Below are positions 45,248 through 50,740 of a stretch of DNA of 64,000 nt, piece after piece (position 1 is the stretch's first letter; each line of letters begins with the position of its first letter). Location: assembly GCF_050320075.1 (NCBI RefSeq), contig NZ_CP190018.1; one strand, given 5' to 3'. The notes under the pieces were generated by a model. The model saw nothing but the letters and a program-made list of their open reading frames with translations, made no database searches and had not been told where the DNA came from. This DNA is from Escherichia coli. Lineage in GTDB: Bacteria; Pseudomonadota; Gammaproteobacteria; Enterobacterales; Enterobacteriaceae. The position numbers and the translations under genes are program-made.

Positions 45248-45326
45248 GCCCACAAATTTGAAGTAGCTCACACTTATACACTTAAGGCACGGATGGATAT
45301 TGCTTCTGATATTGTCCGGCCGGACA

Positions 45327-45916: not shown

Positions 45917-47257
45917 GTGACTACATTAACGCTTGTTTTAACAGCAGTAGGGTCTGTTTTACTGCTGCTGTTTTTAGTCATGAAGGCGCGTATGCACGCT
46001 TTCCTGGCTTTGATGGTGGTGTCCATGGGGGCTGGCCTTTTTTCCGGTATGCCGCTCGATAAAATCGCAGCGACGATGGAAAAAGGGATGGGAGGCACCC
46101 TCGGCTTCCTGGCGGTGGTTGTCGCCCTGGGAGCTATGTTTGGCAAGATCTTACATGAAACCGGCGCAGTCGATCAGATTGCCGTCAAAATGCTCAAATC
46201 CTTCGGTCACAGCCGCGCGCATTATGCCATCGGCCTTGCGGGGCTGGTCTGTGCGCTACCGCTGTTCTTTGAAGTGGCGATTGTTCTGCTGATTAGCGTT
46301 GCTTTCTCAATGGCGCGCCACACCGGTACGAACCTGGTGAAGCTGGTAATCCCATTATTCGCAGGCGTGGCGGCCGCGGCTGCGTTCCTGGTGCCTGGAC
46401 CAGCGCCAATGCTGCTGGCATCGCAGATGAATGCCGACTTTGGCTGGATGATCCTGATTGGCCTGTGTGCGGCAATTCCGGGAATGATTATTGCCGGGCC
46501 GCTGTGGGGTAATTTCATCAGCCGCTACGTGGAGCTGCATATTCCTGACGACATCAGCGAACCACATCTCGGCGAAGGCAAAATGCCATCTTTCGGATTC
46601 AGCCTGTCGCTGATCCTGTTGCCGCTGGTGCTGGTAGGGCTGAAAACCATTGCCGCGCGTTTTGTGCCAGAAGGCTCTACCGCTTACGAATGGTTCGAGT
46701 TTATTGGTCATCCGTTTACCGCGATTCTGGTTGCTTGTCTGGTGGCGATTTATGGCCTGGCAATGCGTCAGGGCATGCCAAAAGACAAAGTGATGGAGAT
46801 TTGCGGTCACGCGCTGCAACCGGCGGGGATCATTCTGCTGGTGATTGGTGCAGGCGGCGTGTTCAAACAGGTGCTGGTTGACTCTGGCGTAGGTCCGGCA
46901 CTGGGCGAAGCGTTAACCGGCATGGGCCTGCCGATTGCCATCACCTGCTTCGTGCTGGCAGCTGCAGTGCGCATCATTCAGGGTTCTGCCACCGTTGCCT
47001 GTTTAACGGCGGTGGGACTGGTGATGCCGGTTATTGAACAACTGAACTACTCCGGTGCGCAAATGGCGGCGCTGTCGATTTGTATCGCCGGTGGTTCGAT
47101 TGTTGTCAGCCACGTTAACGACGCCGGTTTCTGGTTGTTCGGTAAATTTACCGGCGCGACCGAAGCCGAAACGCTGAAAACCTGGACCATGATGGAAACC
47201 ATACTCGGCACTGTTGGTGCCATCGTTGGGATGATTGCGTTCCAGCTGTTGAGTTAA
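45917..47257 (+). CDS. gntU: Low-affinity gluconate transporter GntU (GntP family)
   Basis: 446-aa polytopic membrane protein. Confidence 0.9.
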   Translation: MTTLTLVLTAVGSVLLLLFLVMKARMHAFLALMVVSMGAGLFSGMPLDKIAATMEKGMGGTLGFLAVVVALGAMFGKILHETGAVDQIAVKMLKSFGHSRAHYAIGLAGLVCALPLFFEVAIVLLISVAFSMARHTGTNLVKLVIPLFAGVAAAAAFLVPGPAPMLLASQMNADFGWMILIGLCAAIPGMIIAGPLWGNFISRYVELHIPDDISEPHLGEGKMPSFGFSLSLILLPLVLVGLKTIAARFVPEGSTAYEWFEFIGHPFTAILVACLVAIYGLAMRQGMPKDKVMEICGHALQPAGIILLVIGAGGVFKQVLVDSGVGPALGEALTGMGLPIAITCFVLAAAVRIIQGSATVACLTAVGLVMPVIEQLNYSGAQMAALSICIAGGSIVVSHVNDAGFWLFGKFTGATEAETLKTWTMMETILGTVGAIVGMIAFQLLS

Positions 47258-47271
47258 TTACTGCGACAAAT

Positions 47272-47299
47272 TACTGCGAGCTTGCTCGCAGTAATTCAT
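47272..47299 (+). terminator. Palindromic hairpin downstream of gntU (probable terminator)
   Basis: Perfect inverted repeat aattactgcgagc tt gctcgcagtaatt; no strong T-run. Confidence 0.45.
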
Positions 47300-47396
47300 T
47301 TCTCTTATCTCCTCTCTTCATCTTTTTGATCTCTCTCGCAAATTTACCTGCTAATAATCCGTTCTAATCACTGCCTAAAGATCGCAGGAGATAAAG

Positions 47397-49493
47397 ATGG
47401 AAAAGCACGGAGCTGAATTGCTTTTACAGCGGATGTTAGGAAATACCACCGCTACTTTCAGGGAAGGGCAATGGGAAGCCATAGATGCAGTGGTTAATCA
47501 GCGGCGAAAACTGCTGGTTGTACAGCGCACCGGCTGGGGGAAAAGTGCCGTGTACTTCATCGCCAGTAAAATCTTCCGCGATCGCGGCGCTGGCCCGACA
47601 ATTATCATCTCTCCTTTGCTTGCCCTGATGCGTAACCAGGTTGCCGCCGCTGAACGGTTAGGTATTACGGCTGAAACGTTGAATTCTACAAACAGGGAAG
47701 AATGGCAGCGCATTAGCGATAAGTTGCTGCAAGGTGAGGTCGATTGCTTGCTGGTTTCCCCGGAACGTTTGGCAAACCAGGACTTTATCGAAACGGTTTT
47801 ATATCCTATAGCCGATCGTATTGGCTTGCTTGTGGTCGACGAGGCGCACTGCATCTCTGATTGGGGCCACGATTTTCGCCCGGATTACCGACGTATATTA
47901 GATATTTTGCGCCAACTGCCTGCGAATACCCCTGTTCTGGGTACAACCGCGACAGCGAATAACCGTGTTGTTGAGGATATCCGTCAGCAATTGGGTGACA
48001 TTGTGATTCAGCGTGGAACGCTGGCTCGCGAAAGTTTGGCGCTTGATGCCTTAGTCTTAGGAGAACAGTCATCCCGTCTGGCATGGTTAGCAACGGTTAT
48101 CCCTCAGTTTTCCAAATCGGGAATTGTTTATACCCTGACGACTCGCGATGCTGAACTTGTCGCCGAGTGGTTAAGGAAAAATGGTATCAGTGCATTTGCT
48201 TACTACAGCGGCGTGACTTGTGAAGGCGCGGAAGATTCTAATACTGCCAGGGAATATCTGGAGCAGGCACTGCTGGCAAATAAAATCAAAGTGCTGGTCG
48301 CGACGACGGCATTAGGTATGGGGTTTGATAAACCTGATTTAGGTTTCGTCATTCATTATCAGATGCCGGGGTCTATTGTCGGTTACTACCAACAGGTGGG
48401 GCGTGCCGGGCGTGCTATAGATTCCGCAGTTGGCATATTGCTTTGTGGTGGTGAAGACCGCGCTATTCATCAATTCTTCCGTGAAAGCGCCTTTCCTGCG
48501 GAGGCGCAAATTCATGAAATACTCAACGTACTTAGCGAGAATGACGGTCTTACCCTACGAGGCATTGAACAACGGACGAATCTTCGTTATGGGCAAATAG
48601 AAAAAGCACTGAAATTATTGGTAGCGGAAAATCCATCGCCTGTGGTGTATACCGAGAAATTATGGCGCAGAACTATCGTCAGTTTTTCTCCTGATCATGA
48701 ACGAATTAACCATTTGATGAATCAGAGAAAAAGTGAACTGGCAGACGTTGAAAGCTATATCACGACCAAGGAGTGCAAAATGCAATTTCTGCGCCGTGCA
48801 CTCGATGAGCCAAGTGCCGAACGTTGTGGTAAATGTAGCAGTTGTCTTCAGCATCCGTTATTGTCGCCCGACATTGATAGCGGCTTACTCCATGCGGCAA
48901 ATTTATTTATTAAACACGCTGACCTGCCGTTAAATCTCAATAAACAGGTGGCAGCTGGGGCTTTTACGCAATACGGATTTAAAGGGAACTTGCCTGCGGG
49001 TTTACAAGGATCTACGGGGCGAATCCTTTCTCGTTGGGGAGATTCCGGGTGGGGAAAGCAGGTAGCACAGGAGAAAAAAACGGGGCGCTTAAGTGATGAG
49101 CTGGTAGAAGCATGTGCGGAAATGGTTCGCCAACGCTGGAATCCGCATCCTGAACCAACCTGGGTATGCTGCGTTCCTTCATTAAGGCACCTCGACCTGG
49201 TTCCTGATTTTGCCCGGCGACTGGCGGCGAAACTTGGCTTACCTTTTATTGATGCCATTGAAAAAGTCGTGGACAATCCACCGCAGAAAATGCAGCAAAA
49301 CCGTTTTCACCAGTGTCAAAATCTCGACGGGGCGTTTGTGATTACCCCTCCTTTGATGCCAGGTCCGGCGTTGCTGGTTGACGATATCGTGGATTCTGCA
49401 TGGACGCTGACAGTTCTGACAGCACTGTTACGCCAGGCAGGTTGCCCGACGGTTTATCCTCTTGCCCTTGCTTCTACCTCGGTAAAAAATTGA
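47397..49493 (+). CDS. RecQ-family superfamily-2 helicase fused to a C-terminal ComF-type phosphoribosyltransferase-like domain (PsyrT/RqlH-like candidate toxin)
   Basis: 698 aa. RecQ motifs: FREGQWEAIDAV, Walker A TGWGKS, DEAH box VVDEAHCISDWGHDFRPDY, YYQQVGRAGR, Zn-binding CKMQFLRR...CGKCSSC. C-terminus: QNRFHQCQNLDGAF...ALLVDDIVDSAWTLT matching ComF/PRTase PRPP-loop pattern. Good RBS aggag 8 bp upstream. Confidence 0.8.
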   Translation: MEKHGAELLLQRMLGNTTATFREGQWEAIDAVVNQRRKLLVVQRTGWGKSAVYFIASKIFRDRGAGPTIIISPLLALMRNQVAAAERLGITAETLNSTNREEWQRISDKLLQGEVDCLLVSPERLANQDFIETVLYPIADRIGLLVVDEAHCISDWGHDFRPDYRRILDILRQLPANTPVLGTTATANNRVVEDIRQQLGDIVIQRGTLARESLALDALVLGEQSSRLAWLATVIPQFSKSGIVYTLTTRDAELVAEWLRKNGISAFAYYSGVTCEGAEDSNTAREYLEQALLANKIKVLVATTALGMGFDKPDLGFVIHYQMPGSIVGYYQQVGRAGRAIDSAVGILLCGGEDRAIHQFFRESAFPAEAQIHEILNVLSENDGLTLRGIEQRTNLRYGQIEKALKLLVAENPSPVVYTEKLWRRTIVSFSPDHERINHLMNQRKSELADVESYITTKECKMQFLRRALDEPSAERCGKCSSCLQHPLLSPDIDSGLLHAANLFIKHADLPLNLNKQVAAGAFTQYGFKGNLPAGLQGSTGRILSRWGDSGWGKQVAQEKKTGRLSDELVEACAEMVRQRWNPHPEPTWVCCVPSLRHLDLVPDFARRLAAKLGLPFIDAIEKVVDNPPQKMQQNRFHQCQNLDGAFVITPPLMPGPALLVDDIVDSAWTLTVLTALLRQAGCPTVYPLALASTSVKN

Positions 49494-50695
49494 TGAATCT
49501 TTCAGCCAATGCACAAGCGACTCTCCTGCTAACCAGCGATTTTTCTCGCGCGGCGGCGAGTGAGTATAAACCTCTTAGTAATAGTGAATGGGGGAAGTTT
49601 GCATTATGGCTGAAGCACCAACGTATCAGTCCCGCCGATCTTCTGGTGCCGCAACCGCAAGAGAAACTTACAGGCTGGAGCGATCCGCGTATTTCTCAGG
49701 AGCGTATTCTTGGCTTGCTGGCGCGTGGTCATAGTCTGGCGTTGGCGGTAGATAAGTGGCAACGCGCCGGTTTATGGATCTTAACCCGCGGAGATGCCGA
49801 TTATCCCGTTCGCTTGAAAAACCGATTGCGAACGGATGCACCTCCCGTTTTATTTGGCTGCGGGAATAAAGCATTACTGCAAGCGGAAGGTATGGCGATT
49901 GTTGGCTCGCGAGATGCTCCGACTGCCGATTTGCGCTATACCCAACAACTGGCAGCGAAACTGGCCCAACAGGGGATTTGCGTTATCTCTGGTGGTGCGC
50001 GAGGTATTGATGAATGTGCAATAGCGTCGGCGCTGGAGGCCGGAGGAACTGCCGTTGGCGTATTAGCTGATAGCTTGTTAAAAACGAGCACGTTAGTGAA
50101 ATGGCGTGAAGGGCTTATAGCAGGCAACCTGGTGTTGATTTCACCGTTTTACCCAGAGGTACGTTTCACCGTCGGCAATGCGATGGCGCGGAATAAATAT
50201 ATTTATTGCCTTGCTGAAAGCGCAATGGTTGTACGTGCGGGAATGACCGGTGGAACGATAACCGGAGCGATGGAGGCGTTAAAACATCAGTGGCTGCCTG
50301 TTCTGGTTAAACCAAATCAGGATGTGCAATCAGCCAATTCACGATTAGTAGAAAATGGGGCGTCATGGAGTGCTGAACAGGCTGAGAATGTGACGATCAG
50401 ACTGCCAGACGTTCCTGGGCTGATGTATGACAGAGCACTCCGTAACGCTCAACCAGAATTGTTTTCGCTGCACGAAGATGACGCAAATTACGCAGTGATG
50501 CCCTCGCATACCCCTGTCGATTTTTATCAACTTTTTGTGGCGGAACTGGCGATCCTTGCAAAGGAATCGATAAGTATTGAAAGGCTGGCGTCTTGTACTG
50601 GTTTAACCATCGAACAAATTAGTATGTGGCTGAACCGCGCAGAAGAAGAGGGAAGGGTTATCCGATTGGGCGAAGGTCATTATCAGTTCAGGTAA
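49493..50695 (+). CDS. DprA (Smf)-like Rossmann-fold protein with C-terminal winged-helix (PsyrA/RqlI-like candidate antitoxin)
   Basis: 400 aa from the ATG overlapping the upstream stop (TGATG). DprA motifs: IVGSRDAP...ICVISGGARGIDECAIASALEAGGTAVGVLADSL...NAMARNKYIY...VVRAGMTGGT. Confidence 0.75.
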   Translation: MNLSANAQATLLLTSDFSRAAASEYKPLSNSEWGKFALWLKHQRISPADLLVPQPQEKLTGWSDPRISQERILGLLARGHSLALAVDKWQRAGLWILTRGDADYPVRLKNRLRTDAPPVLFGCGNKALLQAEGMAIVGSRDAPTADLRYTQQLAAKLAQQGICVISGGARGIDECAIASALEAGGTAVGVLADSLLKTSTLVKWREGLIAGNLVLISPFYPEVRFTVGNAMARNKYIYCLAESAMVVRAGMTGGTITGAMEALKHQWLPVLVKPNQDVQSANSRLVENGASWSAEQAENVTIRLPDVPGLMYDRALRNAQPELFSLHEDDANYAVMPSHTPVDFYQLFVAELAILAKESISIERLASCTGLTIEQISMWLNRAEEEGRVIRLGEGHYQFR

Positions 50696-50699
50696 TAAA

Positions 50700-50733
50700 A
50701 CAGGTGCCGCCTCTGGTTGTGTGCAGCACCTGT
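50700..50733. terminator. Hairpin between the DprA-like gene and yhgN (convergent), probable yhgN terminator
   Basis: acaggtgccgc...gcagcacctgt stem-loop; on the minus strand followed by a T/A-rich run. Confidence 0.5.
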
Positions 50734-50740
50734 TTGAACC

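Follow-up and report, generated by a model that had tools for sequence, protein, structure and literature searches.

How is transcription of the gluconate transporter gene gntU ended and that of the toxin-antitoxin operon behind it started within the 139 nt that separate them, and what part is played by the pyrimidine-rich tract in this spacer? The downstream operon is the known RqlHI/PsyrTA pair, described in extraintestinal pathogenic Escherichia coli by Russell & Mulvey (2015, PMC4670107), who found rqlH and rqlI to be co-transcribed and did not map the promoter. In their strain F11 the rqlHI mRNA was equal in aerobic and microaerobic growth; they also report expression of the operon without gluconate induction. 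According to a 2025 preprint, which names neither the conditions nor the regulator, PsyrTA expression is condition-dependent and correlates between E. coli strains. When expressed in K-12, the PsyrTA of E. coli strain NILS69 led to a growth defect, and protection was not detectable against the phages tested there (bioRxiv 10.1101/2024.12.20.629700), so that a defence role of PsyrTA in E. coli is not established. The system contributes to the fitness of extraintestinal pathogenic E. coli in the gut and the urinary tract and is classed among the anti-phage systems. To our knowledge the promoter and the regulation of rqlHI/PsyrTA have never been mapped. The analysis of the spacer, based on comparison of sequences, indicates that it probably ends gntU transcription and starts the toxin-antitoxin/phage-defence operon from an activator-type promoter.

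The rqlHI operon and its neighbours

The spacer was analysed within a 64-kb stretch of E. coli DNA (the window), in which the gene order is gntR, gntK, gntU, the 139-nt spacer, rqlH, rqlI, the convergent yhgN, asd and glgBXC. The genes and the element that frame the operon are the following.

45917..47257, + strand: gntU, gluconate transporter gene, the upstream neighbour (stop codon 47255-47257)
47397..49493, + strand: rqlH (psyrT), RecQ-like helicase toxin of 698 aa (PADLOC, Pfam)
49493..50695, + strand: rqlI (psyrA), DprA-like antitoxin, starting at M32 of a 431-aa frame annotated from 49400
50698..50735, no strand assigned: inverted repeat AACAGGTGC...GCACCTGTT in the interval between rqlI and the convergent yhgN, read from the sequence

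The operon has the same gene order, domains and sizes as the RqlHI/PsyrTA system. PADLOC gave 1064 bits for PsyrT and 663 bits for PsyrA, the latter match covering residues 32-431, and the Pfam domains DEAD, Helicase_C and DNA_processg_A were detected in the pair. The RefSeq start of rqlI at 49400 gives a protein of 431 aa and a 94-nt overlap with rqlH, while the ATG at 49493 overlaps the rqlH stop codon as TGATG. Since all orthologues and the PADLOC profile begin at M32, the annotated start is probably 31 codons too early. The inverted repeat behind rqlI is likely to be a two-way terminator.

Conservation of the locus in enterobacteria

The preliminary description of this region had spoken of an inserted operon, which is misleading, as the pair is syntenic at the same site, behind a spacer of the same length, in at least five genera. 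It lies in the interval between gntU and yhgN (or the replacement of the latter) in Escherichia, Citrobacter, the Klebsiella oxytoca group, Silvania and Superficieibacter. Outside E. coli the order gntR-gntK-gntU-rqlH-rqlI-(yhgN) was found in Citrobacter freundii, C. cronae/werkmanii, Silvania hatchlandensis, the K. oxytoca group, Superficieibacter and an unidentified bacterial endosymbiont (as named in NCBI), and the gntU-rqlH spacer measures 139-144 nt in every one of these lineages. The pair is followed by yhgN and asd in Citrobacter and Silvania, by a yhgN-type (MarC-family) gene and asd in the endosymbiont-like contig L097, and by asd and glgB with no called yhgN-type gene in the K. oxytoca group; Superficieibacter has other downstream genes. 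The fragment L098 ends just past rqlI. The closest RqlH relatives outside Escherichia/Shigella are 68-74 % identical, and all those looked up directly follow gntR-gntK-gntU. Identity between the genera amounts to 94-97 % for GntU and YhgN, 68-74 % for RqlH and 57-63 % for RqlI.

In E. coli the spacer is present, single-copy and chromosomal, in 1650 of 5426 complete genomes. In strains that do not carry the pair, for example a B-strain derivative, gntU and yhgN are separated by another spacer, which has 56 bp and a hairpin of its own (L001:2659-2714). The last position of homology to these strains is the end of the gntU stop codon, beyond which they match again only from about 50738-50740, the joints being devoid of repeats. 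The 3483-bp segment 47258-50740 and the 56-bp spacer thus represent a clean swap, with no flanking repeats and no recognisable remnant. The synteny in at least five genera together with the common spacer length argues that K-12-like strains most likely lost the pair, and that the locus is most likely an old resident with fast-evolving genes.

Four distant psyrT loci, from a gammaproteobacterial MAG, Psychrobacter, Shewanella and Photorhabdus (L004-L007), are similar over ~80 nt upstream. An upstream frame terminates a few bases short of the helicase in three of them, with ...LLPKLMSGEL as its last residues, and in Photorhabdus these read ...KLMNGEL. The ...LLPKLMSGEL end is similar to the C-terminus of a type I restriction specificity subunit; the helicase would then be part of another defence operon.

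Judged from an alignment of ten spacer sequences (A3), whose lineages share ancestry and so are not independent samples, the layout of the spacer is conserved across five enterobacterial genera. The only conserved columns are those of a hairpin core, the TGAT...TC of a dyad, an AAT block, the GG of the ribosome-binding site and the ATG.

Composition and extent of the pyrimidine-rich tract

The tract begins directly behind the hairpin and runs into the dyad.

47297..47339, + strand: pyrimidine-rich tract, made up of the T-rich tail of the hairpin, a G-free spacer and most of the dyad (86 % C+T)

Its sequence, tctcttatctcctctcttcatctttttgatctctctcgc, is located at 47301-47339. The CT-rich stretch noted earlier upstream of the operon was confirmed as the most skewed in the 64 kb, although it proved much shorter than the ~100 bp assigned to it: the 43 nt of 47297-47339, 86 % pyrimidine, contain only 4 A and 2 G, whereas 47340-47396 is only 47 % pyrimidine. 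The best windows of 30, 40 and 42 nt within the tract contain 90, 87.5 and 88 % pyrimidine, respectively. In coordinate-free sliding windows over the 64 kb the tract ranks at the top for purine/pyrimidine skew on both strands at lengths of 30-42 nt, its skew, far stronger than chance would produce, being equalled by 0.003-0.009 % of windows. In the 78 nt of 47297-47374 there are 24 C and 5 G, the top value of the window for the excess of C over G (0.024 % reach it).

The same bias was found in the other lineages. The 33 nt between hairpin and dyad contain 67-85 % pyrimidine and 0-3 G in every lineage, which places them in the top 0.05-4 % of windows of their own locus, and C exceeds G in the 78 nt after the hairpin in all lineages. 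The sequence of these 33 nt is not kept and could not be aligned in detail. Retention of composition but not of sequence points to a strand-specific role tied to ending gntU transcription.

Several other origins of the bias were considered. H-DNA, which calls for an uninterrupted homopyrimidine mirror repeat of ~15 bp or more, is unlikely because the longest uninterrupted pyrimidine run has 12 nt (47308-47319); in the alignment this run was not kept in other lineages. A tandem-repeat search found none in the spacer, a scan of 47000-47700 against Rfam 15 at a permissive threshold returned chance matches only (E >= 0.6, far under the gathering scores), and the spacer had no match in plasmid or phage collections. 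No such tract was seen upstream of 80 distant psyrT loci. The pyrimidine richness might also have no function at all and represent a terminator tail extended by drift or mutational bias in a non-coding spacer with few real signals, as the turnover of the 33-nt sequence and the lack of tandem repeats, Rfam families and mobile-element matches would allow. This is unlikely, as the bias recurs in every lineage despite that turnover, is the most extreme in the 64 kb and sits in a hairpin-to-dyad spacer whose length is fixed to within 2 nt.

The hairpin and the predicted end of gntU transcription

Two elements lie between the gntU stop codon and the tract.

47256..47266, + strand: direct repeat AATTACTGCGA, copy 1, which overlaps the stop codon of gntU and was observed in E. 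coli only
47269..47296, + strand: terminator-like hairpin with a stem of 12-13 bp, about -16.6 kcal/mol (consensus scan, covariation)

The hairpin at 47269-47296 is a G+C-rich stem-loop of the kind found in intrinsic terminators. Hardly any change is seen in its core GCTGCGAG/CTCGCAGC from lineage to lineage, and its 5 outer pairs covary (16 double-change cells; the observed score was reached in 0 of 500 shuffles), the predicted stability ranging from -11 to -23 kcal/mol across the lineages. The tail that follows the stem in E. coli, CATTTCTCTT, has 6 T in 10 nt with a longest T run of 3; in the other lineages 2-6 T were counted in the 10 nt after the stem, and the T tail is poor in most.

Rho-dependent 3' ends have been described as a stable stem that lacks a proper run of U and is succeeded by untranslated sequence with much C and little G; Dar and Sorek (2018) reportedly found that trimming shortens such ends as far as a hairpin. 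A rut site is expected to comprise ~70-80 nt of untranslated, C-rich and G-poor sequence, and 47297-47374 is a stretch of this kind, the most extreme one in the 64 kb. The spacer thus resembles Rho-dependent terminators with a protective stem-loop in its stable hairpin, its poor U tract and its ~78 nt with a large excess of C over G (24:5), as well as in the retention of this composition across genera. It differs from them in that the genes are only 139 nt apart, so termination would fall at or inside the next promoter and gene.

The first ~10 nt of the tract would accordingly serve as the T-rich tail of the conserved hairpin at which gntU transcripts are predicted to end. The next ~25 nt, G-free and composed of C and T only, would form with the rest of the 78 nt a rut-like Rho loading region. 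Such a region may catch the polymerases that pass the imperfect hairpin, and in this way gluconate-induced gntU transcription would be kept from the toxin operon. Since a promoter needs no pyrimidine bias, the ground for the Rho-loading part is composition.

The sequence AATTACTGCGA occurs in 47256-47296 as two direct copies and one inverted copy, the duplication being specific to E. coli, so two mutually exclusive hairpins are possible: in place of the main hairpin, 47256-47266 could pair with 47286-47296. A ribosome that has reached the stop codon of gntU would mask the first copy. Across the five genera the innermost 7-8 bp of the hairpin (47274-47291) do not vary, as also read in loci L087, L089, L092, L095 and L099, which exceeds what a terminator stem needs, and sequence-specific recognition of this core by a protein is conceivable. 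The 120 metagenome matches listed for the hairpin palindrome were unrelated and at chance level, none of them lying beside gntU or rqlH.

A CRP/FNR-type dyad at a fixed position

The 3' end of the tract overlaps a dyad.

47325..47340, no strand assigned: CRP/FNR-type dyad TTTGA-TCTCTC-TCGCA, centre at 47332.5 (alignment, consensus match)

The E. coli dyad matches the CRP consensus TGTGA-N6-TCACA at 8 of 10 positions and the FNR consensus (TTGAT-N4-ATCAA) at 7 of 10, the latter a degree of match that is common by chance at the base rate of the 64 kb. Matches to CRP of at least 8/10 occur in the window at 0.31 per kb, i.e. 0.043 would be expected in 139 nt. The only 9/10 CRP match in the window, at 45257, lies in the gntR-gntK spacer, where the literature leads one to expect a CRP site, and it served as the positive control. 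The position of the dyad is kept in all lineages. In six of them it reaches 9/10 to one or the other consensus (TTTGATTTCTATCACA, TCTGATTCCTGTCACA, TTGATTGCAATCAT and similar), to CRP in four and to FNR in three, C. cronae/werkmanii belonging to both groups; the C. freundii dyad is 8/10 to CRP. The E. coli version is mixed, with an FNR-like left half and a CRP-like right half, and is the most degenerate of the set. Its TCGCA half-site is that of the gal CRP site.

Upstream of 80 distant psyrT homologues the dyad and the hairpin palindrome were either missing or without enrichment, which makes them elements of this chromosomal locus and not of the toxin-antitoxin module. Elements bound to the locus in this manner are consistent with a host regulator. 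An autoregulatory operator would be expected to accompany the genes wherever they occur, as at typical type II toxin-antitoxin loci, but neither palindrome does so at the distant psyrT homologues.

Geometry of the predicted rqlHI promoter

Between the dyad and rqlH three further elements were recognised.

47357..47374, + strand: ATCCGTTCTAATCACTGC, an 18-nt identity island with the -10-like TCTAAT (47363-47368) and a G at -14 (alignment)
47373..47377, + strand: predicted transcription start zone, 7 nt past the conserved T, deduced from the sequence
47386..47390, + strand: Shine-Dalgarno AGGAG of rqlH, 6 nt before the ATG at 47397 (sequence, alignment)

No canonical sigma-70 promoter, with -35 and -10 hexamers 16-18 nt apart, was found on the + strand of the spacer by the consensus scan, in agreement with what had been noted before, and the minus strand of the spacer gave no promoter match either. 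By weight matrix the best -35/-10 pair in the spacer scored 3.6, whereas the best pair in ordinary 160-nt segments of the window reaches a median of 4.7.

The dyad is followed at a nearly constant distance by the AAT block, read as TCTAAT, CTAAAT or CTTAAT across lineages, and a G that hardly varies stands four bases before the hexamer; the -10-like hexamers comprise TCTAAT, CTAAAT, CTTAAT, ATAAAT and TTTAAT. The T of AAT lies 34.5 nt from the dyad centre in six lineages; in E. coli and Superficieibacter the distance is 35.5 nt. The hairpin end precedes the dyad centre by 40-42 nt, and the T of AAT precedes the ATG by 28-32 nt. If this T is placed at -7, the dyad is centred at -41.5/-42.5 from the predicted start. 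An activator site centred at -41.5 that replaces the -35 hexamer defines a class II CRP/FNR-dependent promoter, galP1 being an example. An A preceded by a pyrimidine is a typical start, and in the six other lineages a pyrimidine-A step falls exactly at the predicted start position.

The last 15 nt of the tract would thus constitute most of the dyad 47325-47340, standing in for the -35 hexamer at a class II activator-dependent promoter. With the activator site at -41.5/-42.5 transcription would start near 47375 and produce a leader of ~22 nt with a strong ribosome-binding site. The likeness to class II CRP/FNR promoters comprises the dyad 34.5-35.5 bp from the last base of the -10-like hexamer, the lack of a -35 hexamer, the G at -14 and the pyrimidine-purine step at the predicted start. 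The differences are the mixed half-sites and the -10-like hexamer, which has the T at -7 and in every lineage is missing the A at -11, a base near-universal in -10 hexamers; a shift of the register by one regains the A and loses the T. The operon also differs from class II FNR promoters in having no oxygen response in E. coli F11 (Russell & Mulvey 2015, PMC4670107), and the constancy of rqlHI mRNA between aerobic and microaerobic growth in that strain argues against FNR control in E. coli.

The preliminary description had offered TTGATC and TAATAA as a possible promoter pair with a spacing of about 20 bp. The two hexamers are indeed present at 47326-47331 and 47352-47357, 20 nt apart, and TTGAT is kept across five genera; TAATAA is not kept, and 20-21 nt is too far for a -35/-10 pair. 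A weak sigma-70 promoter specific to E. coli, with TTGATC as the -35 and TAATAA/AATAAT (47352-47358) as the -10, could draw on the match of AATAAT to TATAAT in 5 of 6 positions, on the conserved TTGAT and on the second allele class of E. coli, which has CATTAT at the same place with A at position 2 and T at position 6. It is very unlikely all the same, as its spacing exceeds the workable 16-18 nt (rarely 19), its weight-matrix score is under the background median and its -10 candidate is missing in Citrobacter, the K. oxytoca group, Silvania and Superficieibacter, i.e. in most other lineages, though the remaining architecture is kept there. From the comparison of lineages TTGAT is better read as the left half of the CRP/FNR-type dyad than as a -35. 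The wider suggestion that this spacer holds the control region of the operon and an unusual or regulated promoter is a fair one, because the spacer resembles a control region and has no canonical sigma-70 promoter; the promoter itself stands as a prediction.

Judged by eye on the alignment, sites for sigma-54 (GG-N10-GC), sigma-28, sigma-E, LexA, Fur, IHF and NarL and the GntR operator fit at most some lineages, E. coli being without the key bases. Two minus-strand frames of 13 and 16 codons behind purine-rich sequences resembling ribosome-binding sites have no counterpart in the other lineages aligned. A literature search for a dRNA-seq paper on CFT073 did not find one.

Allele classes of the spacer and possible transcription by read-through

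The E. coli carriers fall into two allele classes, one of 910 genomes at >=95 % identity and one (class B) of 740 genomes at ~87 %. In the sampled carrier rows only match lengths of 183 and 181 query nt occurred, one per class, which argues for no length variation within a class among these rows. The hairpin and the tract are nearly identical between the classes, and class B, which includes ST131, carries a recombinant patch that starts at 47343, immediately past the dyad. Of the 54 positions that separate the dyad from the ATG, 18 differ between the classes (33 %); none of these differences falls in 47357-47374 (permutation P about 0.006). This alternation of a kept activator site, a free spacer, a kept -10 and start, a free leader and a kept ribosome-binding site suggests a promoter, which predicts such a pattern. 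The TAATAA/AATAAT of the preliminary description belongs to the free spacer.

The differences of class B are concentrated in two short dense patches, 47343-47513 and 47737-47840, the first of which covers the leader and the first ~40 codons of rqlH. Both are presumably recombination tracts from a diverged donor.

The operon could also do without a promoter in the spacer and be transcribed by read-through from gntU, with the hairpin as a partial terminator or an RNA-stabilising stem and with the conserved blocks and the tract working in the transcript, be it as sites of processing, as a leader free of structure or as a place where Rho loads. The co-orientation and constant adjacency of all the genes across a rigid spacer of 139-144 nt, the lack of a canonical promoter and the poor T tail of the hairpin in most lineages would fit such transcription, a conserved strand-specific composition suits a role at the RNA level, and some distant psyrT homologues begin a few bases past the stop of the upstream frame, with no room for a promoter. 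Taken as a whole this joint reading is distinctly unlikely. It assigns no obvious RNA-level meaning to a dyad at class II spacing from a -10-like block with a pyrimidine-A step behind it, and the allele-class pattern in E. coli, with the dyad and the 18-mer kept and the spacer and leader free, is the one predicted by a promoter. In addition, rqlHI expression has been reported without gluconate induction (PMC4670107).

Possible pairing of the tract with the ribosome-binding site

Within the tract TTATCTCCT (47305-47313) is a perfect 9-nt complement of AGGAGATAA (47386-47394), so that in long read-through RNAs the tract could act as an anti-Shine-Dalgarno sequence and block rqlH translation, only promoter-proximal transcripts being translated. 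The predicted accessibility of the ribosome-binding site is indeed 0.71 in the short RNA and only 0.19 in the long one, and position 47307 with its partner forms A:U in the window and U:A in class B, but U:U in the O157 type. Shuffled tracts occluded the site nearly equally (0.28 +/- 0.07), so the occlusion comes from composition; moreover, the other genera showed no consistent occlusion and the folding z-score without the hairpin was only -0.7. With composition explaining the effect and no conservation of the pairing, this arrangement was rejected as a candidate and is highly improbable.

Proposed organisation of the spacer

The explanation that best accommodates the data is a composite one, in which the tract joins the tail of the gntU terminator, an insulating stretch resembling a Rho loading site and the binding site for the activator of rqlHI, whose promoter would be of a non-canonical class II type and start near 47375. 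We advance it tentatively, with a chance close to even. The tract is a new example of ordinary kinds of element within a known system. The analysis provides coordinates that can be tested, namely the dyad 47325-47340, the -10-like block 47363-47368 and the start near 47375, and it suggests two roles, the control of rqlHI by a global regulator and its insulation from gluconate-induced gntU transcription. Should neither hold, the tract would be an unusually skewed spacer in an otherwise ordinary intergenic region.

A more far-reaching version, in which the toxin-antitoxin/defence operon has long been wired to cAMP-CRP or FNR across at least five genera through a non-canonical class II promoter and insulated by hairpin and pyrimidines, is rather doubtful. 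If such wiring exists, defence and toxin dosage would follow the carbon or oxygen status of the cell, and decay of the site in E. coli would explain the oxygen-dependent phenotype of the rqlI mutant without oxygen-dependent transcription.

Toxin decay at toxin-antitoxin loci

In the O157:H7 strain WS4202 rqlH is annotated as a pseudogene with a frameshift and an internal stop (L084:4298-6422, corresponding to window 47397-49493), with no damage to the spacer in front of it or to the antitoxin gene rqlI. Strain FDAARGOS_497 offers another example of toxin decay beside an intact antitoxin: a HicAB pair adjoins nikR, and its toxin gene hicA is annotated as a pseudogene with an internal stop (L101:21995-22626); the window is not collinear with that strain there.
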